Shown piece after piece: positions 3,137 through 26,779 of a stretch of 37,918 bases of DNA. The stretch is from positions 1 to 37,918 of IMG/VR virus record IMGVR_UViG_3300010148_000038; one strand, 5' to 3'. Every line of letters begins with the position of its first letter. Position 1 is the stretch's first letter. The stretch comes from a virus. Lineage: Duplodnaviria > Caudoviricetes. The position numbers and the translations under genes were made by a program. Under the pieces are notes generated by a model. It had not been told where the DNA came from, did no database searches, and saw only the letters and a list, made by a program, of their open reading frames with translations.

Positions 3137-3140
3137 TTAG

Positions 3141-5583: not shown

Positions 5584-5587
5584 TTAA

Positions 5588-8500
5588 GTGGTAGCAATAG
5601 GTAGGTCAAGCCACGCTTTCTTTTTTGATGGTGTAAGTGATTCTATACTTATACCTCAAGGTCGTTTTACTAAACTTGGTGATAATCATTCTATTGGTGC
5701 AGGTATGAATATAGTTAATAAAACATCACCATCGGATATTTTAAGTAAAACAGGAAAAGGTAAAGATGAAACTACTTTAATTAATAGTAAATTTGATAAT
5801 GAGTTTGCTATAGAAGCATGGGTTATTCCCGATTGTGGAGGGATAATTGTTGAAAGGGAAAGACAGTTTAAATTAGAAATTGGTACTGTAGATACACCCG
5901 GACCTGCTAAATTTACAGTATATTTAGACACTAAAAACGGTACAAAACCATTTGTACTTTCTACTGCTACTGATGTAAATACTAGATGGGATGGAATAGT
6001 TTTTCCCGAACAAGAATTTAGCGGTATACACGATTCATATAACCGATACGACTTAACTAACTATAACGACGCTACAAATTTAAACTTTAATCACAGACCT
6101 CTTTATCATGTTGTGGGTGCAGTAAGTAATAAAAATATTAGTTTATTTGTAAATGGAAAACTTCTCGTATCACAAACAAAACCTACAGATGCTAAGATGA
6201 CAGATTCTACTGCTCATGTATATGTAGGGGGTAAAGGTGGTGATTATAGAGGGGTAGTAGAATCTATTCACTTTGCTAATCGTTTTGATGAACAAATTAT
6301 AACTCCTAATGTACCTATGGATAATGGTACTACTACTACGGCTTTATATCGTTTTGAAGAACCTATAGATGTAATTGAAGAAACATATACAATTACTGCT
6401 TTGGGTAGTGATTCTGCTTCTCCTTATGCCGCCGCTACAGACGGTACAACTACTACTCTTACTATATCGGCTACAGATGCTCAAGCATTGATTGAAAGAC
6501 TTACAGGTAAACAATACGATTCTACAAACACTACAATAAATTTCACAGAATCACCTTATAGTATGGGTAATTATGCTACATATAATAATTATAACAATCC
6601 TAATACACCTACTGTGAATCCTATTCCTCATACACCATATAACATAATAATCAATCCGGGTGCTATAAATAGAAATACGCATAAACCAAACAATAGTCCA
6701 CCCGAAAGACTTCGTATACTTTCTATTAATGGTGCTACAGGAGTAATCACAGTAAATAGTATACATCTCGATTTCACTCTTGCTACTACAGGTTTACGAG
6801 GTATTTTACATTCAAGAACTAAAGATGTAGATGATTACTTTGTAGTTGTACCTGCTGATTTATTAATAGATTTAGTGACAGGTAAACCATATCAACCTCC
6901 ACATTTTAATACTCAAATTATAGATAAAACTGGTCAAATGATTTTAGATGAAACTATAAATGCTCAACATGGTATAGTATATTCTTCCCAAATGGCAACT
7001 TCAATATCACACCCTTTAAACCCATTTGCCGTCACATGGCCTACTACTCTTAATGAAAAATATCAAGTTGGACACAGTGGTAGGCATAAATTTTCTCATA
7101 TTGAAGGACATGAATATATGAGAAGATACCCAAGACCTACTTCAATGAAAATAGACCAAAAAATATCGGGTTCAGCAGATATAATAGAAATGGATTATGC
7201 TAACATTGCTAAAGGGATAGATAAATTATTTATTAAAAATCAACTTGCAGACTTTTATAATGAAAATTCTCAAGCCCCTATCACGAGTATAATAAATAAC
7301 GCTAACGCAGGTACAGTATTTACAAACGGTTTAATACCATCTAAAGAAGAAATAATCGCTATTACTGTTGATGACCATAAACCATTTATGTTAAAAGGTC
7401 CAATTCCTCAAGTATTAGATAGAAGTAGTTTAAATCAAAGTGAAAGATATTATCATCTAAAACCGGAAACTGAAAGTAGAGTAGCACTTCTCCATGTTCC
7501 AACTTTAAAATCTACACATAATCTCGCACCTTATGTAGAAATTCATTACAATGCTATAGATTTAACGGGTGACTCTATGCAAGCACAATCTACTAATCCT
7601 ACTCCTATGTTGATGGTAGAAAAAACTGTACCAAAAGGTAGTTTAACACTTACTGGTACAACTACAGTATTAGATGTAATTAAAGCAGATATAGCAGATG
7701 CAAACAAAGATACTACAATATATTCACCCGGAGGTTATATTGAACTCGCAAATCCTGTATCTAATATGGGTGAATATTTTACAGAAACTAACAGTTTAAT
7801 TGGTGATAATACTGGTGGTGCTGAATATGACATTGAATTAAATTTTGATTTTACACCAAGAAAAGAAGATTTTACTGCTGGATATACACCATCTAGTGAT
7901 TCAAATGCTCAACCTGCAACAACACCACAAGTTATTACAAGTTCTCACAATAAAAGTACTCATCCGTCTGTGTATCATAAGTTATGTATCGAACCTACTT
8001 CTGTAGATTCTATTACAACATTAACAGATTTAGGGAATACACAATTCAAAATGGGCGCTGAAACAATAAACACCGCTACTGCTACTTTTGATAAAGGCGG
8101 TGTTAATCAAGGTAGCCCGATATTTGAAATGTTCGATATTATAGATAATGTATATGTTAATACTTCTAGTGTATCAGCAAGAATTTATATTCAACCATCT
8201 AAGAAAACTAGAACTAATCAATTAGCAAAACTTCGTAATGGGATAGAAAAAGGTAAAACACCTAATTTAATATCTTTATATTTCTTAGCAAGTAGAACAA
8301 GAATACGCTCGGTTAAACAAATAAATGACAGTGAAAGTAATAGTGTAATTACTCAAGTCACTGCTACAGGAATTGTAGAAGAAGCGATAAATGAAACAGT
8401 TTCATTGATGGGTAGCGGTTCACCTAACTCTCATGTAGTACAAGAAATAGAACCTAATGCTCCTGTAGTTTCAATTACATTAGGTGGTCCGGGTCAAGGT

Positions 8501-11500
8501 GCTATAAACACTAAACCTACTTATGACCCAAGCCCGTTAATGCGTTTACCGGGTTCTACAAGGAGGAATTGTGTAGTAAGGGCTATATCAGTATGTACAC
8601 TCGATACAGTAAAAAATATGTCTGTACAACCTTTAAACAATGACTCGGAAGACATACGCTCATGGGGTACATATGCTTTCCCGAAAAAAGGTAGGATTTT
8701 TCTTAACGATGGGGCTAATGCTGAATACTCCGGTAAAGTAGCCGCAGGTTTCTTTTTTGATGATGCAAACGCTATTGCAGAAAGAAAATATATTTCTAGT
8801 AGTGGTGATATATTTTCATCTTTTAATGATTGGTGTTTAGGTGTAGATTTAATTTCTAATCAAACTAAAGGTACACATAGTGTTAATGAGCACATCTTTA
8901 ATGATATTGATTTTAGTTATGAGAATTTATGTGATGATGGGAGTACAGTAAATGATAGATTATTTCAAAGTATAGATGATGTAGTACATGATTATCAACT
9001 AAGCACTCAATATGCAAGCACTCGTGCGATGGTAGAAATACCCGTTTTCCCTCAACAATTTTTTGACCAACAAGCAGACGGTATATTCCCCGGACCGGAT
9101 AACAGTATGAAAGTGCATTTAGATGCTACATATACTGCTCATACATGGAATCCTACACCTGTAGGTAGAAGAGTTGAAGAAATTCAACCTAATGATAGAG
9201 AGGCTAATTCTGCTTATAGTGAAAATGTAGAAGGCAAAAAATACTTTACAAGTACATCTATTACCCAAATAGTTGAAAGTGGAAATGATTTAAAAATATA
9301 TGTTGAGAATATAAATGTCTTTCCTAATACTTTAGGACCATTAGATATGAATAATTTTAAGAATGTAGTTTCAAATCATAGATTCTTTATTGATGATGAT
9401 TGGGCTTATTACACTAATGACCCTATTACAGATGGATATGTAAAAATATACAACAAGCCTTCTACAATTGGTAATGGTGGCTATCATGGTTTTAATACAG
9501 AAGAATTATTTGAAAAATTAGTAGTAGGTTGTAAAGTTTCAGTAGGTGTATCTAATCCTTCACTTAAGTCAATTAACTCCGATATTACTACTCAATCATC
9601 CGATTATGAAAATAGGTCGCCATATTATCATGACACTGCAAATGTACAAACTCAAGGTGGTAATCTTGATTATGGACTACGACAATATGTAAGTGCAGTA
9701 GAGTTCAAAGCCGGTCCACTTTCTAATCCTCATACACCGAGAACTAAAACAAAAAGAGCAAGTGCGAAAATCATTCAAGGTACTCAATTAGCCGGTCAAA
9801 TATATGCTTTAGAATTAGATGATGTAAAGCATTTCATTGATACTAACTACACTTTAGATGTTAGCGGCAACCCTGTAGTTGGTACAGGAGACTTGCTAAT
9901 TATAGGTAAAGTATTTTCTGCAACGCCTATAGAAGTTCTGTATTTAGGAACACAATTTAATGGTGAATTTTCTTTAAACACTACTAATAATAATACCATA
10001 ATAGTGCAATTTGGTACGGGTGTCACAGTACCTAATCTTCAAGATGTAGAATTTAAATTAGAAAAAGTAGGCAGAAGCCATCTTGCTCTATCTAATATAG
10101 CGCAAATTACATCTAATGAAGGTATAGTGAGTACATTTAGACCTACTACTACTAATGAAATATGGAATTTTGTAGGAACTACATCTGCTACTTCTACTAC
10201 AACATTAACTATAAGTTGTGCTAGTGCTACTCGCTCCGCTATTGCTAATACTATAGGACTTAATTTAAGACCCGGTGATATGTTATACAAAGAAAGCGGA
10301 AGCACTATCGCTTATGTAGGTACAGTTGCTTATGTACATTCGAGATTCCATACAGGTCACGCAACTAACACCACTGTAGAGTTAGCCGCCAACAATGCCG
10401 TAGCATTAGCCGCTACTGATAAAGTAAGAATTGGAATAAATTCTGTTATGGCTAATGATGCCGATGCTATACTCAATAAATCATGGTGTAATCCATATGC
10501 GGCAGGTGGATTAAGAAATGGTGATACTGTTTGGATGAATATGACTATGAATAATGCTCACGCAGTAGAGGGATTATTTGCTAAAAGCCGTGGTGTATTT
10601 AATGAGGCACAGGTATACAAAGCATTCAATGGTGGCGAAGGACAATTAACAAACAGACCTCGTGACTCTATACCTCTTGAAAACTTTTTAATTGGTGATT
10701 CTTGTTTAGAAACGGCTATCAATTTTGTTCAACATGTCAATAAAACAATTGAATTAAATTATGAAGCGATGGGGTTATCAGCATCACAAGCACCTACTAT
10801 AGCCTATATTGACCCTTATCTCGCTTCGGATGGACATACTCGTGTTTTGTTATACGATGTAGCGCACGATAGAGAATTTATTTCATTTCATGATATTCAC
10901 ATGCAAGTTCAAACAAGCCCTTCTACACCCGTAATTGGACACACAAGAAACCTCGCTACTAAAGATGGTTATTATCAATTAGATAATGTACTTACTCAAA
11001 TTAACGGTGGTGCGCCTCATTATCTTACAACTCAAATAGATGTAGCCAACGGTTTCCCTTCGGAAAATAGATACATAAGAAGTACCCAACAATCTAAATT
11101 TATTGAAAGTGCTTATTCACATAATATAGCAAATCAAACTTCTAACGATTTATACCCTATTGGTAGTGTAGTGAATGGTGTTATTACAGGAAACCCTGTT
11201 AATGATTTCATTATGGAAAACCCATTGAAAGGATTTAGTAGTTCTCCGATTACTAATATAGAAAATGAACATTACATGGGTAAAGGACACGGACATGTAG
11301 TACACAGTGGTCTTTACCATGAATCAGTAGGTACTAATTTCCATATCGCAGATAGCGTTTTACCTCGTATTGAACCTGCTACTCATTCATCTTTTTACGC
11401 TAATAAAAAACATAATGAATTAAGAGTGAATAAAGGTGATACGAGAATACTTCCTATGGTAAGAGTACTCAAAGCACATAGAAGGGCGCAGGGGTATAGT

Positions 11501-14500
11501 ACTTTCACATTCAAAGATAATAGCACCTTCTTTGATACACCCGATGGTACAAGAGTTATTTCCGCTTTCTTATGCCTAAAGGGTATTCGTGGTGAAGAAT
11601 TGAATTTGATAAATCATGAAGAAAGTAGATTACAACATTTACCCCAATGGTCAAAAATGGATTATATACGCCGTCAAACTATTGACTTTGGTGAAGTAGG
11701 AGTTAAAGAAGGTGTCACAGATATTGAGGCGGCGGCAAGAGAAATTGTCCGTATGGTGAATCAAGGTGCGGCTAAGAACGGTAGAACTCATGCTCGTAGA
11801 CCTTCTCATCAATATCCCGGTGAAAGTGAAAGAATGGACCTTACAAGAATCGGTGTTAGGGAAGATGTAAATAATCCTAACAAAGACCCTGCAAGCGCAC
11901 ATGTAAATGCTGATTTTGCGGCCACAGGTTCTACCCACGACCCTGCGCCGTTTTGGTCACTTGAACACGCTACTGCCACTCAAGATAGAGGTAGTCATAT
12001 GGGTTATCTTAGAGCGCATATAGGAAGGGTTATCGAAGATATAAACGGAGTTGAAGGATTTACTGTAGTTATTCATTCGACAGTACCGGGTGCAAGTGGT
12101 CGTAATTTCTGTGCTTGGTTAGACAATAGTAAAGGTCAATCACCTTATCAACCGCAATTTTTAGTAGGTCATGGTGGCCGATTTAGAAACTTTTGGTGTC
12201 AGCAAGATGAAACTATGGGTGAAAATATGCACCCTGCGCCTATGCCGTTAAACAAACATGGTAGGCCATTTGCACCTATTACCACACTAAGAGAAATGAT
12301 TAATTCGGAAAATAGTATAGATGATGTAAAAAGCAATCATGATTATATTTCAAGATTAAATGATGATGAAAAAGCAAGAGTATTATCATCACATGTAGGT
12401 AGTGGTGCTTTTAGTAATACTATTTTTGATGAATCATTTGAATCTCAAAGTCAGTCATTGACACTTGTAGAGGGATTAAGAATTGGTACTAAACCTGTTG
12501 GAAGAATAAATTTTGGTGGTTTAGTAGCGACAGGTGTACCCGGCTTCTCCCCAATTGTAGGTAAATTTGGTTGTGGAGTTAAAGGAGATAACACATTTGA
12601 TAGTTTATACGGTAGCCTTACTCATACTTATGGTGGTTATATTGATGGGGCGCAAATTAAATCCGGTAAGATAGGAACAGATGATTTATACGGTTTTAGA
12701 TTTACAGACCATAGAGGTAAATCATACGGTATTAGATTTGTCTATAAGAAATTAGGGGATAACTTTACCAATGATAATACTTTAATTCCTAATTCTTTAG
12801 ATAATGAGATAGGTGTCTTCTTTAATGATAGAGATGTTTCACAAGGTGGATTTTCATTAGGAAACCACATAGTAGGTAAAGGAGATGCTACAGGACAAAT
12901 CACAGATACATCGGTATTGTCTAAAGTAAATTACAAAGGCAACCGTTGGAGAGGTGTATATGCGCCCGATTCTTTGATTAACGCATCTGTAAAGTGGGAG
13001 TCTACAACAGATACTTTAACTGTTAAGTTTTACAGTAGTAGTATTTATGAAAGTGCTTATTCCGGCAAAGGATTAGAAAGTGTTGAAGATATACTAGGGT
13101 ATTTAGGATTTCCAAAAGAAAACGGAATTATACAAATTAATGATACATTTACCGGCACTACTGCTAAAGGTAGTTTAGGTAATACATTATCATATACAAC
13201 TCGTACACAAGAAAATGGGCATTTATCAAGAACGCATGTATTCTATGGAATTAAAGGTAGTGCTTTTACTGCTTCTCATACAGTAGCGGGTACGGGTACA
13301 GTATCTACAAGTACAGGTATAACCGATACTGTTAATGCACACCCTAACAGTACAGGTGAATGGGCTTATGTTTTGATTTCATCTCGTATGAATTGGACTA
13401 CATTACTCACTGATGAAGTAATGGCGGCGGCTACAGAAGCGGCAATAAATTTAGTTGATGTAAACATAGAAGAAGGAGTATCATTTGATTGTACAAGTAT
13501 GCTCGCCGCCGATGGGCGTACATTAGGGGAATGGGGAGTAAGCCCCGATGCAATTAAATTAAGAGCGTTTAATCCAAATAACGATAAATTAATTCCACCT
13601 TCTACAATGTTTAGTGCTACAAGACACGAAGATAAAGGAATTGAATCTGCACATGCTGAATACGGTTTATACAGTTCATTTAATCAAGGTGGTACTATAA
13701 CCGGATTATCAATTAAAACTACAGGTGGCTCGTATTTTATAAGTACGGGTGGTGGTGAAAATGTTGTAGCGAGCATGGGTGCTGGAAGTAGTGGATTTTT
13801 TGGTAGTAGTAGTACTGATGATATAGGCGCAATAGATATTTCATCAGTAGACGGTGGTGGTGGTGTCACAGGTGTTGTAATAGTAAATGGTGGTCAAGGT
13901 TTCCGTGTAGGAGATGAAATAGATTTAGTACAACAACCTTTCGGTAGTAATGGTAATGATGGTTGTACTTTAGTTGTGACAAGCGTTAGTGGGTCTTTAG
14001 GTGGACAAATTTTCAGCACTAATGCTGATAATAAACCACTTAGTGATGCCGATTTATTACTTAATAAACAAGTATTCTGTGGTTATGTACCTAAGACTGT
14101 ATTACAGATAGAGTCTAAAGGTCGTGGATTCCATGCCAATACTCCTACTCCTGTGCTTGTAGATTCTACTAATTCACCTATTGATACTTCTGTTTGGGCT
14201 AAGAATTTGAAGGGAGTAGATTATACTAGAAGTAGAGGCGACCACATTATACCTTGTATAAATGAATTGAGTTTTGGTGCTAATACTGATATTAGAAGAA
14301 AAGGTAGTATAGCCACTATTCAAGAATTTCTTACAGGTTCACCTAGTGGTAATAATTCAGTAGCAGGTACAGGATTTGCTAAAAATACTATTTATTCTAC
14401 AGGTAAAAAAGGTGCAGTACTAAGTGCTAATAATGCTACTCAAGCAGGTAGTGGATTTACAACTGCCGGTGTTTATACCGTGTTTGGTGGTTCGGGTAAG

Positions 14501-17500
14501 GGTATGAAATTAAATCTCCCTAGTAATAATGTACCCGCAGAAATTGGTACTGCTTCTAATTTTACTGCATATAAATTAGACTTTGGAGAGGGGTATGTAG
14601 TGGGTGATGCTTTACATATAGAAAACAATAATACACTTGATGTAGGTAATCCTACGGGTAGTGGTACTGCTATGAAATTTACTGTAGCGAGTGTAAGTTC
14701 CGGTGAAGGGGCAAAAATTATGCCTACTTCTATTACACCATTAGGTGGTATAACTGCCGCTACTATAATTGATAGAGGTAAAAACTTTGTAGATGAAGAC
14801 TACATAAGAGTATTACCTGTTGAAGATGGTAAAGAAGTAGCGATGATACGAGTTAGTAATATATCTAATGCTTCTATTTCTACAGATTTTGTATTTACCC
14901 ACGACCAAAGATTACATGCTACATTAGTACCTCAATCTCTTGATGATAAAACACAATTTGCTCGTTTCAAATCTGTAGGGGAAAGAGGTACTTTTTACAT
15001 TGGTAAAGATAAATCGGCAGTATTTAGAAGTGATGGTACAAATCTTTTACCGATAGTACAAAATGAAGAGTTTATAAAATTGTTTGATGAAAAATCTTTT
15101 GCTGATACAAAAGTTATGATGACAAGAAACCCTAATCACCAAATTAACGGAAGAAGATTCCACGGTAGCGTAGACTCCGAGCCTATAGTTTACTTTAGAG
15201 GTGCTAAAGATAGCGTAGACCATAGCGTACCACTTTACTTCGGTGGTGGTTTTACAGGTGTGACAGTAGATATTAACGATGGTACTAAAAATGATTACTC
15301 AACATTCTATACTCATCCTTATTCAAATGGACCTACGGGTACGGCAGGTATTCAAAATGCAAATGAAATAAGTACATCATTTGCTACATTAGATTGTAAT
15401 GCGCTCTTTGCTTTCTTCCCCGGTGCAGCGTTAGTAAATCAAAATAGAGGGTCATTAAACTCCCCTGTTTTCAATAAGAATAATATTCTAAGCCCCGATG
15501 TACACGCTGGAATGTTAGAAGCAAATACTAATAACGCTTCTTGGGTGAATAGTAAATATTCAGCAGGTGTTGTAAGACAAAAACCTACACCATTAGTATT
15601 ACAATTTGCTCATCCTACTGCAAGATATGAAGACTATCAAAACGCAGGTGCAACTACTCATACAGGTAAACCTAATGTAGAAAATAAAACTATGTATTTA
15701 ATATATGGTCCGGGTCAATCAATACCATTTTCGGAAAGTACTTCAAATATCGGTGGTGGAACATTCCCTACTACAACACAAGAACCCCATCCGGGTACTG
15801 TGGTGACTGTAGGTAATACATGGAGTAAAGTTCCTTATAATATGAATTTACCTAATGCTTTAACTAATGATGCAAATGTATTTGCTCCACCTACTAAAGC
15901 ATTCCAAGCGGCAAGAAACGCATATCATTACGCCGTACCTTCTACACAAGCCATGAATTGGTCACCACCTGCGGGTGTACCCAACAAAGGTAAGTTAGAA
16001 CAAAGACCCGAACATGGTTATCATTATGGTGAGCATTTTAATAACCCAAGAAGTGGTAAAATAATTGAGGAAAATTCAAGTGAATATCTCAAAGCGCACC
16101 CATACAAACATTCCGCTATGACATACTTTGGTATTGCTATGTCTGCTGATATGACATGGCACATGGATGGGGGTTATCATCCGGGTGGACATTGGTTAGA
16201 TAATCAAGTAGCAGCAAATCCTAAAAATCACACTTCAAATACTTTTGTCACTAAATGGGGAAGTACACCTGTACACCCTACTGCTTTCCGTGTATCATCT
16301 AAAATAGTAATTGGAGTAAGTGATAGGGGTAGACTTACATATACATATAATGAAGTAAATGGTAATACTCCTACAGTCAATGAAGATTGTATAATTGTTG
16401 ATGCTACAAGGTGTCAAAATGGAGAAGAGTTAGCGACTATCATCGGTCAAGCAATTAATGAGAATCCGGGTAAAGGCGCACTAAAGGCTCTTGGTGGTAC
16501 ATTTATGCCATCTATGGGTAATGCAAATCGTCAAGATAGGTACGGTTGGGCTGAATTAACATTCCAATCTTATGAAATAGATGGTGATGATATTCTTGAT
16601 GGTTTCGGAATTGGTAATTTCCCATTCAATCACGGAGAATATTTCGGAGATGGTACTCATTCCCATATTAATGCCGGTGATTTAATAGTTTCAGTCACGG
16701 CATCAATAAGTGGAAATGCTCAAAGTGTGTTAGAACAATTACCTGCTTGTGGTTGGATAAGAACAGACGCAGGTGGTAGGGATTTCTTTGCAGCAGGTGG
16801 AGGTACTATGGGTCAAGTACCCGCCTTTGCACCTTATCATTCTCGTGAAGTATATCTTCATTCAGCAGGTAATTATAGAGTAAGATTTTATCTTGCACCA
16901 AATAGAATAAGTGGTTTACCTTTCTTTGAAGATGGGTATTCTTTTTATAATAAATGTCAAAGCGCATCGGGAATATCATTCCCTCCTATTACCACCGCAG
17001 CAAAAATTAGTTTGGTAGGTAATGTAGCAGTTACAGTAAATGGTTCGGGTACTAAAAATATAGTACACACTGAAAAGATATTTGTATGGAGTAAAGCCGG
17101 TGTACATCGTTTCAACAATGAAAATGAGGCAACTCGTGACCACATGACACAGGTACACTTTAGCGGTCTTGTAGATGCAATAGACAGAACAAGACCTGTA
17201 GGTGCAGTAGGTTGGGCGGGAGAAAGATATTCATATCTAAATTCTTTAGAAGTTGAAACTGTAAGTGGAACTAAATTATACGCCGCAGGTTTAGGTGCTT
17301 GGTATCAAAAGTTAGGTTTCTCACCATACGGTTCATCTAACTCTTGTATGGGTGGATTAGGACATTTCCCACATATACGCCCAATGCCTCATAGCCCCGA
17401 AGCAAGCCCAAGAATTAACGGTAGGGCTAATAATGCGAGTACTTCTATTCAAGTACCTTATGAATGGAATATGGGGTTAGGTACTAATGATAGTTGGTAT

Positions 17501-20500
17501 ACAAATTACATTTACAACAATACAGAAGGAAGTCCATATGGTAGATTTTTAAATCAAGATAGTACTTCACTTATAACAGAAAAAGCAGAAAGTGACGATA
17601 ATACATTAGATGCTCTTAATTCGTTTGAGGGTGTTTACAGTCGTGCTTTCCTTGTTGTTAGTTATGAAAGTGAATTACCTTTAGTAGCAAAGTATGACAG
17701 GGATGGTATTACAGGTACAGGAGATTGGTTATCAGTAGTATCTGCAACTAAAGCCGGTACTGCCGCCGCTACTGCCATTACTTATGCCGGTACTACAAGA
17801 TGGGATGAAAGAATACATGGGTATGATAGATTTACCGCACCCGCAAACGCCGGTCCACATGTAGAAGCATTAATTACACCGCATCTAAAGATACCACTTG
17901 AAACAGATTCATTTCCTACATACGGTGTCCATGATGAATTACCCGCATTAGCACAAACATGGAGTGACAGTGTGACAGGTTCATTACAAAATAATAGTGT
18001 TGAAGTACTAATTGATAGAGCAAATCAAGGGATAATTTTTGCAGGTATGTATGTCATACATGCAAATTTACCCGCAGATACAAAAGTAGTTAGAGTAGAT
18101 GCAGATGATGAAATTGTGTATATATCTAATCAAGCCACTGCAACTGTAAATAATACACAAATCACTTTTATGGTACTTGGTGATAATAGAGTTTCAAATG
18201 CTACACCTTGTCTAAATCCTACAGGTGATTTAATCCAAGATATTGATATAAGCCCCGCATCTTTAAATTTAGACTTATTAGAAGGATTAAAAAATCACAC
18301 TAAAAGTAAGTTTTCAACAAATCATAGGGAAACAAGTTTCGATATATACGCTCAAGACGACAGTTGGGTTGGAGATACTAACGCTTTTGCTATGGCTAGA
18401 AATTCTCCTTCTAAAAATTTCACAGTAGAAAATATTGTTTGGAAAAGAATGGATGGAGGAAATTTAAGTTTACCTTCTGTAAATAAAAGAGGCTTAGGTG
18501 CAGTTCCTACAATTACTCGTGTTAAAAACAATGTACCGTATACAACAGGAGAAACAATATTTGGTAATAATCGTTTTACCTTTGAAACTACAAATAGTGC
18601 TATGTTTCCTATTATACAAGCACAAGAACTTATGCACCCTCAAATGGCTACTAAAAATCCCGATGAATTGAGAAATGTTTTAATTATTCCTAATGAAGAA
18701 ATACAATTTAAATCTATTAGTGTAGAAGACGATACAGGACAAATACACACTGTAGAAGGCGGTTCACCGTTTGGAACTATCATAAGAGGATTTAGAAAAA
18801 TCTCCGATAGAATAAGTGAAGGTTTAGCACCTGCGGTAGCGGCTAATGATGGACATGACGATACTCCTACACAAGATATGAAATACTACGGTGTAGAACC
18901 TAATTTAGAAATTCAATTACCCGATGCTAATTCTATACCCGGAAATATATTAGTTAGGTCGGGCTTTGATAGAATACAGGCATATCAACATGAGACTCTT
19001 GGAAGTGGTGGTATTACAAGACCTTCTTATCAAGGTCATAATGGTGCAGGTGAATTATTTGATGAAAATTTTGCTAAGTTAGGCGGTCTTTCAAATAATA
19101 TCAATGAAGGACCAAAACTCGGACCTACATATGATGATTACGGATGGGAACATATTAGTCAAGATTTACACGGTGATATTAAATTCCCCGATAGTACTAA
19201 ATCGGGATGGGTCAATAATACAAAAAATAACCCTATAAATACTTCATACAAACCTCACGATAGAAGTTTATATTTCCACATTACAAAAAATAATTTAGGT
19301 AGTAGTGAAAGACTACCTATTCAGTATACTCATACTAATGGTGTAGTAGAAAACAACTTAACAATAGCCATGTCGGATGGATTTAACTTAATATTAAATT
19401 CTGCATTGAATTACAAAGTATGGAAGGGTGTCACATATGATATAACTGATACACCTACTAATATTCAAAAACTACATAATTCACCATTTGAAACTCATTC
19501 TACTAACTTTTATGTTAATATTAAAAATTCTAATTTAAATAAATCTGCTTTATTACTCATAAAACCGGCATCTACAACAGTATTTACTATACAAGAATAT
19601 GATGATAAAATTTCTGCTTTACAAATTCTTTTTGATTTGACTGATGATGAAGTTATAGGTCTTACTGTAAATGAAGTCATTCAAATTACTCAAGCAAAAA
19701 TGAATGTTAGTGGACCTGCTTACGATTCTCCAAACACTATAACTATTAATCCGGCATATCCTATACCGGCAGGTACTACAAGAATATTCGCCGCAAGAAG
19801 AATCCGTGACCATGCCGAAGTTAGCGGTAATAGCCCCGATGCTAACAATCAACTTTTATCACATAGATTAGTTCCATATGGAACAACTGCTAGTGTAGGA
19901 ACGAGATTACCATACTATGAACAATTTGCTCATAATAATTTATCACCTATGGCTATGCCTAGAATGGGTCATCACTTTGTAAATGCTACTATGGCCGTAA
20001 TGCCGGGTCATTGGGCGCACCCTGCTTATCAAGGATTATATCATAAACACAAAGCATGTACTTCTGCTACTTTAACAATTAAAGAAAAAGCATTATTAGA
20101 AGATATAATTTTAAATCCCGGAGATACTTTATCTGCAAGCATAAAAGACCAATTAGCAGTATATGACCCGTTGCTAGTTATTAGTAGTATGACCGCTACT
20201 CCTAGTGGACCAAGTGACATACACGGTGGAGCATTTACACTTATGTTTGAAAGTAAAATTAAACATGACGGATATGGAGTATTAGCATCTCATGGAGAGG
20301 CAGGTGCAATTAATAAAGCAGGTGGACATACTATTGTTCTAAGAGCAAACGCTAGATACACCTTTAACAATCATTTCCCCGACCCAAGTATAGTAGGTGC
20401 ATATCAAATAATAATTCAACCTAATGTATTTTCAAGCCAACTTATGGGTTATCATGAAAATGGTCCGGCTAACAATATGCCGGATGGAAGTAATGTAGGT

Positions 20501-23500
20501 TTCACAAGCCAACAAACTGCTACAGTTGTAGGTATTCGTGAATTAGATACTACTACAGGTGGTATGGCACTCATACTTGCTAATGCTACTATGGCAGATG
20601 TAAGAGGTTGTGAAATTATGATTAATGAAGTTATGTTAGACCATGACCCCGATGCAGGTAGTCAATTTACTAACATACCTCCTTTGATGACATTTAATCC
20701 ATTTGGAGTACAGGGTACAGAAGCACCCGCATTTACTCGCCAATCATTACCATATCATCCTCAAATGTTTGTAGACTCCACACCGGGTATGACTACTAAC
20801 ATACCGTGGTGGTCTATAGTACACCCATCTAAACCTACTACAATTACAGGTAGTACAAGTGCAAGAGGTTTCCGATTTTTAACCCATCATAGATTAGATA
20901 ATTATTACTTATTCATAAGAGCAAATGCGGGTAGCATAGGCGCACAACTTACACTCGCAGGTTATCCAAGTCTACACCCTAACATCTATGATTCAGTATT
21001 GAGAAACATTAGTCTAAATCCTCATTGTACATTAGTAAGTAATACTTCAACTGTACTGACAGTAGATGATGCAAGCGGATTCCCAATAGAACCATTGTAC
21101 GGTGAGGTATTATATTTCATTGATGCTGACGGCGTAAGGCGTACTGCTACTTGGACTTCAAGAAGTGGTTTTGACGCTACCAATATGAACAAACCTAAAC
21201 TCATCACACTTACGGGCGCACAGGCAGATTTTACAAATAATTTAGTTGCCGGTACAGTTATCCGTTTATCAAAACAAAATGATATAAATAGAGATGCGGT
21301 TGAAATTTTCACCGATTCGGAAAGAAGTATGATTACAAGAACTTTACCACAAACACTTCAAGGTAGTAGAGATACAAACAGTCTTCATGTACCCGATGCG
21401 TATATTTGTCTTTGGTCGCCTAATTTGGGTAGACCAAATGCTAAAGCATATGAAGGGGATGAGTATGCTAATACAGGTTCATCTACATCTACTACACCTG
21501 TAAATCATATGCCGGAGCATTATGAAACAATACATTATCATGACAGTACATACTATGCAAGTCTTGGTCCTTTTGCACTACACATAGAAACTCCTATGCC
21601 GCCGGATTCTACTAACGCTACCGAGCGTAAAGTAGCAAGTCATGGCACTAATACTATTGTGACAAATGCTAGTTTTACTATAGCCGGTGGAACTAAGATA
21701 AGTGTAGATGGAAGAATATATACAGTAGATACTACCGGAACTACGAGTAATGGAACTACTATAACAGTATTTGAAAATACTCCTACTACAATAAAAGTAG
21801 GAAGCACAGTAATGGTTGGCGGAGATGGTTCACCTGCCTCTTCTGCTACAGTAGCAACTAAGAGAGATGCAGAAGGAAATCCATATGTGCCCCAAGCAGG
21901 TACTCCGGGTAGTTTTGCTAATAGAACAAGTATTGTTTCTGCTATGTTAAACAACTTTTGGCCTAGTGGTAGCAAAGGTGGACCATTAGTAAGTAGACTT
22001 GACGGATATGGTTATGTGAGTGCTTCGTGGCATTTACCTACGCAATATGGATATTCTATATCGAGTAATAACAATGGGATTCTTTGGCAAGATTTAGGAG
22101 ATGATGGCTCTTATGATGCTACTACAGGTGTAAGTAATACTGATTACGATACAGTTATGGCGACTTGGGATAGTTATACTGCCGGTAATCAAGCCTTCCC
22201 TAATGTAAGACCAAGACCATTCGGATATAGATTTGGACTACGACAACCATACAACAAACCTCAATGGGCTATGTATGGTATGAGAGCGTACATTGAGGCC
22301 GGTGTGACCGCTACAAACGCTTTATCCGAATATCAACACGGACCATTAGTACAAATTGATAGAAATAACAACACTTGGACATATGCCGGTGGAAAGTCTT
22401 CACCTACAAGTGGTAATATAAGTGATGTATATACAGGTATATTAGAAAGACAAACTAATTTTCAAGGTATGCTTAACGATGAAATATTTGGTACTCAAAC
22501 AAGATATGCAGACGGTATGCGTATGACAAGACCATTTGGTTGTCCTGTAAGAACACTAAGAAATGTATCTCATATGGCAGAAGATGAACTAATTAATAAA
22601 TTATTAAATCCAACCGTAAGAAGAGAATGGTGGGGAGATAGTTTCGGTAAGGGTATATACGATGTGGCAACTGCTTCACAATACTATCTTGTAGATTGGT
22701 GGGGTAATACTCGTGGTGAAGATGTTAGGAGGATGCCTGTTCGTGGATTTGGTATAAGACCTGCGTGGGATGCTCAAGATGCTTATGAGCATTTCCCTAA
22801 CTCAAATTTAGACGGAAGTAATAGACCATATACTCCTTTTTATCATGGTTATAAATACTATAATACTAAAAATGTAATAGACTTTGACACTACAAATATG
22901 GGCTATTTAGTATCATCAAGTACATCTACCGCTTTAGCAGGTCCACAATCATATCAAAAAGTACCATCACAAGTAGGTAATTATGACCCATTAGGCGAAA
23001 ATAGAAAAAACATGCTTGTGGATTTCTTTTTCCCGTATCACGCAAATAGAGTAGGGAGTGCTGGTAATGGAAGAGGTGTAAGATACCCAACATCATTTAG
23101 TGATGGTAGTTTTAGTAAATTAGATTTATTTAACACTCAAAATAATAAAGGTTTAGTGTTATCTCATAATACGGCAGAACCTAATTTGGGTGAAGGGTAT
23201 ATTAGAGCGAACAATAATATCATGGGTACAGATGAAGTTCCAAGAGGAATTAGTAATAGACTAAACATAAGTGAAGACGGTTTATTAAAACCGGAGGCTA
23301 CAGTAAGTGATAGAGACATTGGTGGTGTAGAAGCAGATTATACAGTATACGATATGATAAGTAGGAGTAGTCCAAAAATAGGTTTAGATGGTGAAAATAT
23401 TCACGGTATAGATAAGAATAATATTGTTATAAATTCAGTGGCATATAGTTTACATACTGATAGAAATGTAGGACAAAGAGGTATACTAAGTCATACAAGT

Positions 23501-25021
23501 AGAATAGGTTCATTTGTGCATGACCCTGCGGGTATTATGTATAATTTCCGTAATACATCTATGTTTTCACCTTATGGTGGTTCTTACATAATGGAAATGA
23601 GAAATTATATGTCATTTATTACATTAGGAGATTGGGGTTCATTAGTACCGACTCACGGATTAGCACTTTGGCTTAGAGCCGATAGTTTAGATTTAAATGA
23701 CGGTGATAGTATTGCAGAATGGGAAGACCAAAGCGGCGGAGGAAGAGATTTTACACAATCTACTGCTTCAAAGAAACCAACATTTGTAGCCTCCGATGCA
23801 ACATTCAATAGTAGACCATGTTTAAGTTTTGATGGTGGCGACCAACTAACTCTTAATTTTGATGCTAATTTAAACACTAATGAATTTACTCAATTTATAG
23901 TCATGTCTGTGACTAATGACAATGATGATTTCCAAGTAGGTTTTGAAAGTAGAGGTTCTACTCCTGTAGCAAGGTCGGGATATAACATATTTGCTGATAT
24001 GACAGGCGACGGTAGTTCTGCGGGTCATCAATGGGAGTTTTGGGCAGGGCAAGATGGAAGTTATGGTCAAGCAATATCAGCAGTAGGAAGTGCAACTTTA
24101 AATCAACCTAATTTAATAACTATGTTTATTGATGGTGGTAATGGTGCAGGTGGAACTGTGACCGCACAGACATTAAGAATTGATGGTACACAAGTAGCAA
24201 CACTAACTCCTAATTATTACAAATCTACTGCTAATCAACAATGCATAGGTACGATAGGTGCATCTTCTTCACCATTGTTAGGTAAGATTGCTGAAATAAT
24301 ACAATATGGTAGGCATCTTAGTGATAAAGAAATAACTATGGTAGAAGGTTATCTTGCTAATAAATATAACATAACTGTGCCAATTCAAGTAAAATCATCT
24401 AATCCCTATTTCACAGGTTCTTTTAATACAGATGCGAATAAAATAGATGAATCTATATCATTCTTAGTTAGACCAATTAGAGTACTTAATAAACATCAAG
24501 TTAAAATCGGTGAAAGAATGACTTTAAGTTCCTCATCACCTCAATACAGTTCTATTAATGGTAATTATTTTTCTCAAAGTATTGGTGGTAAGTATGGTGT
24601 ATTTGCATACAATATGCCTAATGCGAGAGCATCCGAAGGATATTATATTAGAGCAACTAACCCCGATACTAACCCACCTTATGCACCTATAACTTATAAT
24701 GCAACTGTTGATGGTGTACACCAACAAATATATTCTAGTACTAATGATACATTAACTATATTTAATCCTACAGAAATAAAATATACAGATTCAACATATA
24801 AACTTCCATCATTAAACAATAAAGTAAACAGAATACTAATTAGTGAAAATACTTTACAACACTATAGAGCAGATGCTAACAGAAGAAGAAGTGAAGTTGA
24901 AGGGGAAAATAAAATTACAAGAAAAGACTTTACAGTACAACCAAGATTTAGCCAATCATTACACCCGAAGGGTCATAAAAACGATGTATCTTATAATAAA
25001 GGCGACCATACAGGAGAGTGA
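5588..25021 (+). CDS. Giant virion structural/adhesion protein (6,477 aa) with N- and C-proximal LamG/concanavalin A-like domains
   Basis: An uninterrupted 19,434-nt ORF inside the tail module. N-terminal LamG-like motifs: FAIEAWV, YHVVGAV..ISLFVNGKL, VYVGG..YRGVVESIH, ALYRFEE. Second LamG-like domain at 23642-24373: LALWLRAD..WEDQSG..KPTF..LSFDG..GKIAEIIQY..VEGYLANKY. It is T/S/G/N-rich. Confidence 0.8.
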   Translation: MVAIGRSSHAFFFDGVSDSILIPQGRFTKLGDNHSIGAGMNIVNKTSPSDILSKTGKGKDETTLINSKFDNEFAIEAWVIPDCGGIIVERERQFKLEIGTVDTPGPAKFTVYLDTKNGTKPFVLSTATDVNTRWDGIVFPEQEFSGIHDSYNRYDLTNYNDATNLNFNHRPLYHVVGAVSNKNISLFVNGKLLVSQTKPTDAKMTDSTAHVYVGGKGGDYRGVVESIHFANRFDEQIITPNVPMDNGTTTTALYRFEEPIDVIEETYTITALGSDSASPYAAATDGTTTTLTISATDAQALIERLTGKQYDSTNTTINFTESPYSMGNYATYNNYNNPNTPTVNPIPHTPYNIIINPGAINRNTHKPNNSPPERLRILSINGATGVITVNSIHLDFTLATTGLRGILHSRTKDVDDYFVVVPADLLIDLVTGKPYQPPHFNTQIIDKTGQMILDETINAQHGIVYSSQMATSISHPLNPFAVTWPTTLNEKYQVGHSGRHKFSHIEGHEYMRRYPRPTSMKIDQKISGSADIIEMDYANIAKGIDKLFIKNQLADFYNENSQAPITSIINNANAGTVFTNGLIPSKEEIIAITVDDHKPFMLKGPIPQVLDRSSLNQSERYYHLKPETESRVALLHVPTLKSTHNLAPYVEIHYNAIDLTGDSMQAQSTNPTPMLMVEKTVPKGSLTLTGTTTVLDVIKADIADANKDTTIYSPGGYIELANPVSNMGEYFTETNSLIGDNTGGAEYDIELNFDFTPRKEDFTAGYTPSSDSNAQPATTPQVITSSHNKSTHPSVYHKLCIEPTSVDSITTLTDLGNTQFKMGAETINTATATFDKGGVNQGSPIFEMFDIIDNVYVNTSSVSARIYIQPSKKTRTNQLAKLRNGIEKGKTPNLISLYFLASRTRIRSVKQINDSESNSVITQVTATGIVEEAINETVSLMGSGSPNSHVVQEIEPNAPVVSITLGGPGQGAINTKPTYDPSPLMRLPGSTRRNCVVRAISVCTLDTVKNMSVQPLNNDSEDIRSWGTYAFPKKGRIFLNDGANAEYSGKVAAGFFFDDANAIAERKYISSSGDIFSSFNDWCLGVDLISNQTKGTHSVNEHIFNDIDFSYENLCDDGSTVNDRLFQSIDDVVHDYQLSTQYASTRAMVEIPVFPQQFFDQQADGIFPGPDNSMKVHLDATYTAHTWNPTPVGRRVEEIQPNDREANSAYSENVEGKKYFTSTSITQIVESGNDLKIYVENINVFPNTLGPLDMNNFKNVVSNHRFFIDDDWAYYTNDPITDGYVKIYNKPSTIGNGGYHGFNTEELFEKLVVGCKVSVGVSNPSLKSINSDITTQSSDYENRSPYYHDTANVQTQGGNLDYGLRQYVSAVEFKAGPLSNPHTPRTKTKRASAKIIQGTQLAGQIYALELDDVKHFIDTNYTLDVSGNPVVGTGDLLIIGKVFSATPIEVLYLGTQFNGEFSLNTTNNNTIIVQFGTGVTVPNLQDVEFKLEKVGRSHLALSNIAQITSNEGIVSTFRPTTTNEIWNFVGTTSATSTTTLTISCASATRSAIANTIGLNLRPGDMLYKESGSTIAYVGTVAYVHSRFHTGHATNTTVELAANNAVALAATDKVRIGINSVMANDADAILNKSWCNPYAAGGLRNGDTVWMNMTMNNAHAVEGLFAKSRGVFNEAQVYKAFNGGEGQLTNRPRDSIPLENFLIGDSCLETAINFVQHVNKTIELNYEAMGLSASQAPTIAYIDPYLASDGHTRVLLYDVAHDREFISFHDIHMQVQTSPSTPVIGHTRNLATKDGYYQLDNVLTQINGGAPHYLTTQIDVANGFPSENRYIRSTQQSKFIESAYSHNIANQTSNDLYPIGSVVNGVITGNPVNDFIMENPLKGFSSSPITNIENEHYMGKGHGHVVHSGLYHESVGTNFHIADSVLPRIEPATHSSFYANKKHNELRVNKGDTRILPMVRVLKAHRRAQGYSTFTFKDNSTFFDTPDGTRVISAFLCLKGIRGEELNLINHEESRLQHLPQWSKMDYIRRQTIDFGEVGVKEGVTDIEAAAREIVRMVNQGAAKNGRTHARRPSHQYPGESERMDLTRIGVREDVNNPNKDPASAHVNADFAATGSTHDPAPFWSLEHATATQDRGSHMGYLRAHIGRVIEDINGVEGFTVVIHSTVPGASGRNFCAWLDNSKGQSPYQPQFLVGHGGRFRNFWCQQDETMGENMHPAPMPLNKHGRPFAPITTLREMINSENSIDDVKSNHDYISRLNDDEKARVLSSHVGSGAFSNTIFDESFESQSQSLTLVEGLRIGTKPVGRINFGGLVATGVPGFSPIVGKFGCGVKGDNTFDSLYGSLTHTYGGYIDGAQIKSGKIGTDDLYGFRFTDHRGKSYGIRFVYKKLGDNFTNDNTLIPNSLDNEIGVFFNDRDVSQGGFSLGNHIVGKGDATGQITDTSVLSKVNYKGNRWRGVYAPDSLINASVKWESTTDTLTVKFYSSSIYESAYSGKGLESVEDILGYLGFPKENGIIQINDTFTGTTAKGSLGNTLSYTTRTQENGHLSRTHVFYGIKGSAFTASHTVAGTGTVSTSTGITDTVNAHPNSTGEWAYVLISSRMNWTTLLTDEVMAAATEAAINLVDVNIEEGVSFDCTSMLAADGRTLGEWGVSPDAIKLRAFNPNNDKLIPPSTMFSATRHEDKGIESAHAEYGLYSSFNQGGTITGLSIKTTGGSYFISTGGGENVVASMGAGSSGFFGSSSTDDIGAIDISSVDGGGGVTGVVIVNGGQGFRVGDEIDLVQQPFGSNGNDGCTLVVTSVSGSLGGQIFSTNADNKPLSDADLLLNKQVFCGYVPKTVLQIESKGRGFHANTPTPVLVDSTNSPIDTSVWAKNLKGVDYTRSRGDHIIPCINELSFGANTDIRRKGSIATIQEFLTGSPSGNNSVAGTGFAKNTIYSTGKKGAVLSANNATQAGSGFTTAGVYTVFGGSGKGMKLNLPSNNVPAEIGTASNFTAYKLDFGEGYVVGDALHIENNNTLDVGNPTGSGTAMKFTVASVSSGEGAKIMPTSITPLGGITAATIIDRGKNFVDEDYIRVLPVEDGKEVAMIRVSNISNASISTDFVFTHDQRLHATLVPQSLDDKTQFARFKSVGERGTFYIGKDKSAVFRSDGTNLLPIVQNEEFIKLFDEKSFADTKVMMTRNPNHQINGRRFHGSVDSEPIVYFRGAKDSVDHSVPLYFGGGFTGVTVDINDGTKNDYSTFYTHPYSNGPTGTAGIQNANEISTSFATLDCNALFAFFPGAALVNQNRGSLNSPVFNKNNILSPDVHAGMLEANTNNASWVNSKYSAGVVRQKPTPLVLQFAHPTARYEDYQNAGATTHTGKPNVENKTMYLIYGPGQSIPFSESTSNIGGGTFPTTTQEPHPGTVVTVGNTWSKVPYNMNLPNALTNDANVFAPPTKAFQAARNAYHYAVPSTQAMNWSPPAGVPNKGKLEQRPEHGYHYGEHFNNPRSGKIIEENSSEYLKAHPYKHSAMTYFGIAMSADMTWHMDGGYHPGGHWLDNQVAANPKNHTSNTFVTKWGSTPVHPTAFRVSSKIVIGVSDRGRLTYTYNEVNGNTPTVNEDCIIVDATRCQNGEELATIIGQAINENPGKGALKALGGTFMPSMGNANRQDRYGWAELTFQSYEIDGDDILDGFGIGNFPFNHGEYFGDGTHSHINAGDLIVSVTASISGNAQSVLEQLPACGWIRTDAGGRDFFAAGGGTMGQVPAFAPYHSREVYLHSAGNYRVRFYLAPNRISGLPFFEDGYSFYNKCQSASGISFPPITTAAKISLVGNVAVTVNGSGTKNIVHTEKIFVWSKAGVHRFNNENEATRDHMTQVHFSGLVDAIDRTRPVGAVGWAGERYSYLNSLEVETVSGTKLYAAGLGAWYQKLGFSPYGSSNSCMGGLGHFPHIRPMPHSPEASPRINGRANNASTSIQVPYEWNMGLGTNDSWYTNYIYNNTEGSPYGRFLNQDSTSLITEKAESDDNTLDALNSFEGVYSRAFLVVSYESELPLVAKYDRDGITGTGDWLSVVSATKAGTAAATAITYAGTTRWDERIHGYDRFTAPANAGPHVEALITPHLKIPLETDSFPTYGVHDELPALAQTWSDSVTGSLQNNSVEVLIDRANQGIIFAGMYVIHANLPADTKVVRVDADDEIVYISNQATATVNNTQITFMVLGDNRVSNATPCLNPTGDLIQDIDISPASLNLDLLEGLKNHTKSKFSTNHRETSFDIYAQDDSWVGDTNAFAMARNSPSKNFTVENIVWKRMDGGNLSLPSVNKRGLGAVPTITRVKNNVPYTTGETIFGNNRFTFETTNSAMFPIIQAQELMHPQMATKNPDELRNVLIIPNEEIQFKSISVEDDTGQIHTVEGGSPFGTIIRGFRKISDRISEGLAPAVAANDGHDDTPTQDMKYYGVEPNLEIQLPDANSIPGNILVRSGFDRIQAYQHETLGSGGITRPSYQGHNGAGELFDENFAKLGGLSNNINEGPKLGPTYDDYGWEHISQDLHGDIKFPDSTKSGWVNNTKNNPINTSYKPHDRSLYFHITKNNLGSSERLPIQYTHTNGVVENNLTIAMSDGFNLILNSALNYKVWKGVTYDITDTPTNIQKLHNSPFETHSTNFYVNIKNSNLNKSALLLIKPASTTVFTIQEYDDKISALQILFDLTDDEVIGLTVNEVIQITQAKMNVSGPAYDSPNTITINPAYPIPAGTTRIFAARRIRDHAEVSGNSPDANNQLLSHRLVPYGTTASVGTRLPYYEQFAHNNLSPMAMPRMGHHFVNATMAVMPGHWAHPAYQGLYHKHKACTSATLTIKEKALLEDIILNPGDTLSASIKDQLAVYDPLLVISSMTATPSGPSDIHGGAFTLMFESKIKHDGYGVLASHGEAGAINKAGGHTIVLRANARYTFNNHFPDPSIVGAYQIIIQPNVFSSQLMGYHENGPANNMPDGSNVGFTSQQTATVVGIRELDTTTGGMALILANATMADVRGCEIMINEVMLDHDPDAGSQFTNIPPLMTFNPFGVQGTEAPAFTRQSLPYHPQMFVDSTPGMTTNIPWWSIVHPSKPTTITGSTSARGFRFLTHHRLDNYYLFIRANAGSIGAQLTLAGYPSLHPNIYDSVLRNISLNPHCTLVSNTSTVLTVDDASGFPIEPLYGEVLYFIDADGVRRTATWTSRSGFDATNMNKPKLITLTGAQADFTNNLVAGTVIRLSKQNDINRDAVEIFTDSERSMITRTLPQTLQGSRDTNSLHVPDAYICLWSPNLGRPNAKAYEGDEYANTGSSTSTTPVNHMPEHYETIHYHDSTYYASLGPFALHIETPMPPDSTNATERKVASHGTNTIVTNASFTIAGGTKISVDGRIYTVDTTGTTSNGTTITVFENTPTTIKVGSTVMVGGDGSPASSATVATKRDAEGNPYVPQAGTPGSFANRTSIVSAMLNNFWPSGSKGGPLVSRLDGYGYVSASWHLPTQYGYSISSNNNGILWQDLGDDGSYDATTGVSNTDYDTVMATWDSYTAGNQAFPNVRPRPFGYRFGLRQPYNKPQWAMYGMRAYIEAGVTATNALSEYQHGPLVQIDRNNNTWTYAGGKSSPTSGNISDVYTGILERQTNFQGMLNDEIFGTQTRYADGMRMTRPFGCPVRTLRNVSHMAEDELINKLLNPTVRREWWGDSFGKGIYDVATASQYYLVDWWGNTRGEDVRRMPVRGFGIRPAWDAQDAYEHFPNSNLDGSNRPYTPFYHGYKYYNTKNVIDFDTTNMGYLVSSSTSTALAGPQSYQKVPSQVGNYDPLGENRKNMLVDFFFPYHANRVGSAGNGRGVRYPTSFSDGSFSKLDLFNTQNNKGLVLSHNTAEPNLGEGYIRANNNIMGTDEVPRGISNRLNISEDGLLKPEATVSDRDIGGVEADYTVYDMISRSSPKIGLDGENIHGIDKNNIVINSVAYSLHTDRNVGQRGILSHTSRIGSFVHDPAGIMYNFRNTSMFSPYGGSYIMEMRNYMSFITLGDWGSLVPTHGLALWLRADSLDLNDGDSIAEWEDQSGGGRDFTQSTASKKPTFVASDATFNSRPCLSFDGGDQLTLNFDANLNTNEFTQFIVMSVTNDNDDFQVGFESRGSTPVARSGYNIFADMTGDGSSAGHQWEFWAGQDGSYGQAISAVGSATLNQPNLITMFIDGGNGAGGTVTAQTLRIDGTQVATLTPNYYKSTANQQCIGTIGASSSPLLGKIAEIIQYGRHLSDKEITMVEGYLANKYNITVPIQVKSSNPYFTGSFNTDANKIDESISFLVRPIRVLNKHQVKIGERMTLSSSSPQYSSINGNYFSQSIGGKYGVFAYNMPNARASEGYYIRATNPDTNPPYAPITYNATVDGVHQQIYSSTNDTLTIFNPTEIKYTDSTYKLPSLNNKVNRILISENTLQHYRADANRRRSEVEGENKITRKDFTVQPRFSQSLHPKGHKNDVSYNKGDHTGE

Positions 25022-26431: not shown

Positions 26432-26779
26432 ATGGCTATCTCAAATGCTTTAAAAAATACTTTGTTAAATACTATTAAAACAAGTATTACTTCTATGGTA
26501 CTCGGTTTTGATGGTACACCTGCTACAAATGATGACGGTAGTGCTGGTAGACCTGCAATTACTTTAACTCCTATAGTAACCCAAATAGATGAAACAACAC
26601 TACTGATAGAAGCATCGCTACCTATCAATGAAAGTTTTACAGATACGATAAAAGAAGTAGTATTATTAGGTACTAATGCAGTAGGACAGTTTTATTTAAT
26701 AGGTAGATATAATACTAGACCCATAGTAAAAACTACACAGAATGAAGTTAAAGTAGAAATTAGCATAGAGGTGGTATAA
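26432..26779 (+). CDS. Small tail-tip / fibre-attachment protein (115 aa)
   Basis: MVLGFDGT..TIKEVVL..GRYNTRPIVKT..VKVEISIEV resembles tail-collar or fibre-attachment domains. GAGGA lies upstream. Confidence 0.45.
   Translation: MAISNALKNTLLNTIKTSITSMVLGFDGTPATNDDGSAGRPAITLTPIVTQIDETTLLIEASLPINESFTDTIKEVVLLGTNAVGQFYLIGRYNTRPIVKTTQNEVKVEISIEVV

Follow-up and report, generated by a model that had tools for sequence, protein, structure and literature searches.

Split hubs have been described in lambda (gpL and gpJ) and in RcGTA (gp13 and gp15), in both of which the break lies inside the HDII-insertion (PMC10721106). In the archaeal siphovirus HFTV1, a tape measure protein of 341 aa corresponds to 11 rings and a non-contractile tail of 560 Å, and the hub is shed on ejection (PMC12494034; PDB 9h4p). 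A "large 6 kb" LamG protein without an assigned function belongs to the morphogenesis module of group A magroviruses (PMC11706807), and ORFs of 3,048-3,779 aa are present in the cyanomyovirus S-PM2d (PMC9910659).

Here we describe a locus of a marine archaeal tailed virus (IMG/VR record IMGVR_UViG_3300010148_000038) in which one gene of 6,477 aa, hereafter the giant, lies between a putative distal tail protein (Dit) and a predicted hub gene. The whole stretch of DNA analysed, 37,918 nucleotides in length, is referred to as the window.

The giant gene and its surroundings

The genes of the window are arranged in the order tube, SAP protein, two small genes, tape measure, 468-aa gene, giant, 464-aa gene, 115-aa gene, and 384-aa gene. 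The following features were assigned.

128..2026, + strand: decorated tail tube protein, 632 aa (Phage_tube_2, E 1.7e-5, below the cut-off)
3141..4172, + strand: tape measure protein, 343 aa (PHROG, E 1e-23)
4172..5578, + strand: putative distal tail protein, 468 aa (by position and synteny only)
5588..25021, + strand: giant ORF, 6,477 aa, 706 kDa, predicted HDI-bearing split-hub subunit with an insertion of ~5,500 aa
25026..26420, + strand: 464-aa hub subunit, predicted to hold the later hub domains (profile against the HFTV1 hub)
26432..27933, + strand: conserved 115-aa gene and 384-aa gene, probable fibre anchor and fibre

The giant ORF starts with GTG, preceded by a GAGGTGA box, and contains no N. 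It occupies 51.3% of the window, in agreement with the preliminary description of this DNA, and the probability of a stop-free frame of this length by chance is about 1e-205. Contigs from four runs covered 30, 30, 29, and 30 of 30 bins evenly, and many of them were free of mismatches; no single contig in this set, which comprised no long reads, spanned the whole ORF. Short skips in the coverage are explained by diverged strains. Among the IMG/VR loci, the core motif of the giant was found in an unbroken frame in 79 of 80 and the C-terminal motif in 78 of 79; the frame breaks in the two exceptions (L034, near aa 3870, and L197, respectively) could stem from the assembly or represent splits that occur naturally. 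Misassembly, which had been named beforehand as a finding that would refute the proposal, was ruled out by the coverage in four runs, the homolog family, and the unbroken frames. The rough dN/dS against two relatives was 0.15-0.18 in the core and 0.41-0.42 in the variable parts. The giant ORF is a genuine gene that is conserved and subject to purifying selection. No match was obtained when an annotated phage collection was searched with the giant, the hub gene, and a compact homolog; PDB sequence searches with the giant gave nothing significant, and the similarity of a giant segment in the ESM Atlas was under 0.85.

The virus resembles the group A magroviruses (Apasviridae-like), and the literature on this group points to Poseidoniales as the host. 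On the opposite strand, Pfam identified a thermosome (Cpn60_TCP1, E 1e-126), PolB, ERCC4, and PD-(D/E)XK, which constitute a marker of group A; the thermosome is carried by magrovirus groups A and D (PMC5434244), and descriptions of group A that match the module are given in PMC5434244 and PMC12999244. The thermosome gene (28159-29667, - strand) faces the tail module directly and might help the folding of the giant. Two relatives (G002 and G003; 101-105 kb, 98% complete) encode a portal, a large ligase-bearing gene, a protease, and a capsid protein, and a further group A marker, a ligase in the structural module together with a genome of ~100 kb, was found in these two relatives only, outside the window. 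A gene of ~1,900 aa with a weak match to ATP-dependent ligase is found immediately before the prohead protease gene (L245:12901-18585, L246:10615-16344); in G003, this gene is located between portal and protease. No sheath gene was recognised between the capsid and tube genes of the two 98% complete relatives.

The tape measure protein had been regarded as exceptionally small in the preliminary description. This view did not hold, as the 341-aa protein of HFTV1 serves a non-contractile tail of 560 Å; by this comparison the tail here would be about 55 nm long, short and not unprecedented. The length of the tape measure ranged from 153 to 573 aa in 46 relatives. In four of them (L028, L053, L066, and L086), a tape measure of 153-156 aa was accompanied by two Dit-like genes in tandem, suggesting a siphovirus with about 4-5 rings and almost no tail. 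The tape measure gene of the window contains a 111-nt (37-aa) imperfect tandem repeat at 3268-3563, and an acidic protein with a SAP DNA-binding domain is encoded between the tube and tape measure genes (2036-2542) in this lineage as well as in the sister lineage described below.

The 468-aa Dit-like protein gave no significant match in family, PDB sequence, and structure searches. Tandem paralogs of this gene were seen in 14 of 61 loci (e.g. L018, L021, L033, and L042), some with LamG inserts, and recall the two-domain pseudo-hexameric connector of HFTV1. At the other end of the module, the 384-aa gene varied from about 380 to 1,030 aa in the relatives, with C1q and DUF5907 in the long forms, and the best hit of the 115-aa gene in a PDB sequence search had an E of 0.065. 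The 115-aa gene is likely to encode a fibre anchor and the 384-aa gene the fibre.

Predicted hub-like domains in two genes

Residues 485-1290 of the giant were modelled with AlphaFold using 80 sequences of both lineages (mean pLDDT 73). The model contained the following feature.

7112..8395, + strand: discontinuous HDI-like domain (aa ~509-537 and ~894-936) with a nested beta-barrel (aa ~557-901)

In VIA comparisons, this domain was matched to the Bxb1 tip (Z 7.0, 2.6 Å over 80 residues), phi812 (Z 6.9, 2.0 Å over 76), and residues 33-121 of the HFTV1 hub (Z 6.2, 2.1 Å over 82). The N-terminal hub domains of Bxb1, phi812, pyocin R2, MuSo2, Listeria gp18, HFTV1, AFP, and Mu were aligned within model residues 25-452, with Z 5.5-7.0, which is middling by the scale of the tool, and 1.9-3.0 Å. 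Hub N-termini accounted for six of the best 15 rows (Z 6.2-7.0, 2.0-3.0 Å over 67-82 residues). A galactosidase domain tied with the best hub match at Z 7.0, and tube and Dit folds, which have the barrel in common, reached Z 5.3-6.6, mostly at higher rmsd. Foldseek returned nothing at E 1e-3 for this model or for the second one (residues 4196-5340), and sequence profiles gave no link between the HDI of the giant and that of HFTV1. The HDI reading nevertheless carries weight, because the low-rmsd matches concern one domain of one family at the expected gene position. On the basis of the model, the giant is predicted to carry the N-terminal HDI barrel of baseplate hubs.

The 464-aa gene is predicted from its sequence to encode the later hub domains. 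A profile of its family from both lineages matched residues 266-385 of the HFTV1 hub with E 1.4e-4 (hhalign, 83%); the match appeared only with this widened profile, narrower searches being negative. YQBQ matches were obtained for 24 of 54 family members, with E up to 0.5 and 1.6e-6 at best. In the ESM Atlas, the similarity was 0.95; the features in common were few and included a Sipho_Gp37 row, which is a lead only. The N-terminal ~155 residues are long enough for an HDI, so that the protein may have one of its own; hhalign gave probabilities under 1% either way, in what is a weak test.

The preliminary description had placed the giant between Dit-like and hub-like genes. The location at the tail tip and the hub identity of the downstream gene were supported; the Dit identity of the upstream gene was confirmed by no search. 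It had also treated the separation of these genes, described there as usually adjacent, as an anomaly. This point was not supported: HFTV1 has gp42 and gp43 between connector and hub and lambda has a half-hub with HDI after Dit. In many loci (e.g. L133, L136, and L164), an optional gene of ~114 aa and one or two variable genes of 140-380 aa lie between the giant and the hub gene; the window has none of these.

The gene order of tape measure, Dit-like protein, HDI subunit, and rest of the hub equals lambda H-M-L..J. As in a lambda split hub, the HDI gene follows directly after Dit, the latter being assigned by position, and the rest of the hub is found downstream. No conserved four-Cys cluster, as expected for the four-Cys Fe-S domain after HDI, was present in the giant after aa 936; the giant would work like gpL without being a gpL. 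Taken together, we consider it probable that the locus encodes a lambda-type split hub, in which the HDI subunit with its insertion of ~5,500 residues would form a trimeric tail-tip platform with swappable lectins.

Architecture of the giant and its relatives

A search with residues 1900-2400 of the giant as the query and an allowed length of 3.5-11.3 k aa yielded 277 homologous clusters. Among the 120 clusters listed, 109 had both ends; these were 5,091-6,618 aa long and colinear with the giant. About 5,000 residues of the giant are common to the family, and optional inserts were located at about 1400-1620, 2700-2805, 2890-3185, 4110-4200, 5340-5450, and 6018-6268. The following regions were distinguished.

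5588..6367, + strand: N-terminal LamG-like lectin region, aa 1-260 (Pfam, E 3e-4, below the cut-off)
13685..15142, + strand: central variable region, aa 2700-2805 and 2890-3185, Gly/Thr-rich, around a conserved block at 2805-2890
21011..21277, + strand: small accessory beta-barrel, aa 5142-5230 (VIA on the model)
23639..24391, + strand: optional C-terminal LamG lectin insert, aa ~6018-6268 (Pfam, E 1.7e-6)

The conserved scaffold with inserts that had been noticed earlier was supported. Alignment with the related giant ORFs separated a conserved scaffold from variable inserts, and the three motifs quoted at that time fall in conserved blocks with invariant residues; the contrast between H/P/W/G-rich and T/S/N-rich parts was modest. 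The cores of the central Gly/Thr-rich inserts were aligned in 2-16% of 101 divergent homologs, most relatives being without them. The expectation that the giant is not a simple tandem repeat was borne out: no tandem repeat and no blastp self-match was found, and the giant does not have the internal tandem repeats in a linear chain that characterise a repeat-built fibre or adhesin. Among 286 segment pairs compared in a profile self-scan, the best probability was 25%, and these comparisons gave no support to the idea that a helix motif recurs at ~1700, 2046, 2610, and 3610.

Pfam located LamG domains near both ends, as previously proposed, although the N-terminal one stayed below the cut-off. 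The C-terminal LamG was aligned in 31 of 109 homologs and is missing from two loci with 96-98% DNA identity (L004 and L005), where the gap corresponds to 23696-24280. The PHROG matches of the giant were confined to this insert. An adhesion role of the giant is proposed from these Pfam labels.

The structure-modelled part of the giant amounts to 1,951 of 6,477 residues (485-1290 and 4196-5340). The model of 4196-5340 had a mean pLDDT of 48, with the barrel at 5142-5230 as its confidently modelled module. This barrel was matched to a Mystique tail-tube domain (VIA Z 8.1, 2.0 Å over 72) and to lambda gpJ 490-564 (Z 7.6, 2.5 Å over 72). Similar motifs were noted by eye near aa 1010, 1235, 1410, 2477, and 4600, with weak self-matches. 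The most conserved motifs, with invariant H/W/R/G, were unfolded in this model, as would be expected if they are packed on distant parts of the chain.

A sister lineage with homologs of 1,600-2,200 aa was found by profile search (68 loci). These loci have the same neighbours as the giant and carry its content in two to three genes. Gene A corresponds to giant residues 1-480, gene B, which includes the HDI part, to the blocks from 495 to 3270, and gene C to the blocks from 4280 to 6463, followed by the 464-aa homolog. B and C were separate genes in all 62 sister loci in which both were seen; A was fused to B in 24 loci and separate in 37. Gene C was fused to the hub gene in 53 loci, the other nine being truncated or without a hub gene, and in 43 C-hub proteins the last block of the giant was located 109-206 residues before the hub part. 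A search for longer hub fusions, restricted to 1,027-2,930 aa, found two. No sister counterpart was detectable for giant residues 1230-2020, 2240-3210, 3270-4280, and 4800-5850, which make up most of the scaffold. The chain breakpoints differ between the lineages. The split genes and the fusion with the hub gene suggest that all parts are components of a single assembly, in which the chain breaks can shift. The preliminary description had proposed a single-chain device, to be refuted by relatives encoding the same sequence as many ordinary genes; the sister lineage goes part of the way towards this and speaks against a single chain being essential, although its two to three genes are large rather than many ordinary ones.

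Mutual information was calculated over 172 near-full homologs, and the top two pairs in the giant were Cys-Cys. Three pairs of cysteines were recorded.

8930..8932, + strand: Cys1115, co-varies with Cys4824
20057..20059, + strand: Cys4824, partner of Cys1115
12197..12199, + strand: Cys2204, co-varies with Cys3920
17345..17347, + strand: Cys3920, partner of Cys2204
18209..18211, + strand: Cys4208, co-varies with Cys5652
22541..22543, + strand: Cys5652, partner of Cys4208

Cysteines were counted over 200 aligned sequences with both sites occupied. Cys1115 and Cys4824 were both present in 107 sequences and both missing in 72, with 0 + 0 single cases and 4/4 tree changes shared. The corresponding values were 153, 39, and 0 + 0 for Cys2204 and Cys3920 (3/3 changes shared) and 150, 16, and 0 + 0 for Cys4208 and Cys5652, for which only 2/2 changes were shared. 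The partners are 1,444-3,709 residues apart. Among 46.7 million residue-state pairs, nine were perfect with at least three tree changes, and three of these nine were Cys-Cys, compared with an expected share of 0.004%. The three cysteine pairs listed above rest on 2-4 independent events, an approximate tree, and a segment-wise alignment. Long-range pairs other than Cys were treated as noise, the enrichment being clear at short range only. In the sister lineage, no co-varying pair was seen among 32 Cys columns in 51 loci. Invariant cysteines at aa 1706 and 5008 (10703-10705 and 20609-20611) are a possible further pair, whose co-variation would be hidden by invariance. As distant cysteines were gained and lost together, the chain of the giant likely folds back on itself. 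We infer that the pairs are disulfides; alternatively, they could connect subunits or bind metal.

Interpretation and comparison with known systems

In the arrangement that we propose, the final ring of the tail, beneath that of Dit, would be closed by three giants together with three 464-aa subunits, the part played by gpL and gpJ in lambda. The giant would have its insertion at the site of the small "HDII-insertion" of lambda, T5, and RcGTA, and its ~5,500 further residues would fold back into a compact, Cys-cross-linked body ringing the tip of the short non-contractile tail. Three copies would amount to ~2.1 MDa and, taken as a sphere, have a diameter of at least 17 nm, compared with a tail length of ~55 nm. 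Oxidation of the Cys pairs after release may staple the body. LamG domains and small barrels on the surface would attach weakly to glycans of the host and keep the short tail in an upright position on the Poseidoniales cell, the receptor probably being sensed by the separate fibre (384-aa gene). The tip would then open or detach, as in HFTV1, and the tape measure and DNA would be released. More tentatively, and with somewhat greater doubt than attaches to the split hub itself, the whole multi-megadalton baseplate may be contained in one hub subunit in this abundant lineage of marine archaeal viruses: an uncut chain of 5,000-6,600 residues running out and back, with nested domains mostly without known fold, held by disulfides that span up to 3,700 residues, and serving as a plug-and-play lectin platform that goes with tape measures down to about 155 residues.

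Other explanations were weighed against this one. It is unlikely that the 464-aa protein is a complete hub and the giant a separate scaffold, with its tube fold forming an extra ring between Dit and hub in three or six copies (up to 4.2 MDa). In its favour, the ~155 N-terminal residues of the 464-aa protein are colinear in length with the HFTV1 HDI, the domain of the giant is also matched by tube and Dit folds (Z 5.3-6.6), and Dit-like genes do duplicate (14/61 loci); however, the best matches at low rmsd are to hub N-termini and take in the helix that follows, the 464-aa N-terminus gave no HDI signal in the weak test described above, and the sister fusion puts the giant C-terminus and the hub in one continuous chain. 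Somewhat less likely again is a polyprotein that is cut during or after assembly into pieces like genes A, B, and C, all staying in one tip. Pfam and PHROG searches of the ORF gave no protease or intein family, the stretch at the A/B boundary (aa 450-510) is conserved and not linker-like, and the breakpoints vary by lineage, whereas the functioning of the sister lineage with two to three chains, the prohead protease encoded by relatives, and the demand of folding 6,477 residues as a single chain would fit such processing; the architecture would be unchanged by cleavage.

A part of the giant acting as a delivery device, which refolds or is shed, breaches the host envelope, and extends the short tail, seems quite improbable. 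The tape measures of 153-156 aa in 4/46 relatives, the invariant H/W/R/G motifs left unfolded in the 4196-5340 model, and the shedding of the HFTV1 hub on ejection are compatible with it, but Pfam, PHROG, and PDB sequence searches gave no match of the giant to an enzyme family and the cross-links suggest a rigid body. The preliminary description had offered a baseplate or an antenna, and it is the huge baseplate-like body that emerges as the best reading. A long flexible antenna or fibre, with beads on a string fishing for host cells, is the least probable alternative: it would account for the lectin domains, the many small barrels, and the higher dN/dS in the variable inserts, but it conflicts with the lack of repeats, the nested domains, and the long-range co-varying Cys pairs, thousands of residues apart, and a separate fibre-like gene of variable length is present downstream.

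The split-hub reading would assign a defined position in the virion to a gene that takes up 15-19% of a ~105 kb genome, and the giant supplies several thousand conserved residues without a recognised fold. If it is true, hub insertions, known at sizes up to a few hundred residues, would reach more than 5,000. The two lineages show that chain breaks move freely through one assembly. The split-hub reading predicts three copies, the cross-links named above, and a bulky tip on a short tail. The lectin cassette, which differs between near-identical strains, may set the host range.

In the parts of the literature that were available, including PMC5434244, PMC10160649, PMC5332604, PMC11706807, and PMC5628999, no account was found of this architecture, that is, of the link to the hub, of a chain folded back on itself, or of the division into several genes. 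For the LamG gene of group A magroviruses, neither a hub nor an architecture is described in the available text (PMC11706807); its 6 kb would fit the A+B gene of the sister lineage (about 2,070-2,400 aa) better than the 19.4 kb giant. Large cyanomyovirus proteins are likewise encoded by multi-thousand-residue genes of marine tailed viruses, but no homology to the core of the giant was found. Still larger wedge proteins occur in T4-like cyanophages.

HFTV1 is also an archaeal siphovirus with a short tape measure; its hub matches the HDI of the giant by fold and the 464-aa gene by profile, and it has extra genes (gp42 and gp43) between connector and hub (PMC12494034). Its hub differs in being one chain of 954 aa, in which the additional mass follows the hub domains (PMC12494034). 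Lambda and RcGTA resemble the present locus in that HDI is encoded by the gene following Dit, with the remaining hub domains in a later gene (PMC10721106). However, the resolved domains of lambda gpL, including the Fe-S domain, end near residue 232 (PMC10721106), whereas in the giant the HDI is interrupted by a nested insert of ~360 aa, with ~500 aa before it and ~5,540 aa after it. In the best reading of these comparisons, the giant is an extreme-size form of the lambda-like split hub rather than a repeat-built fibre.
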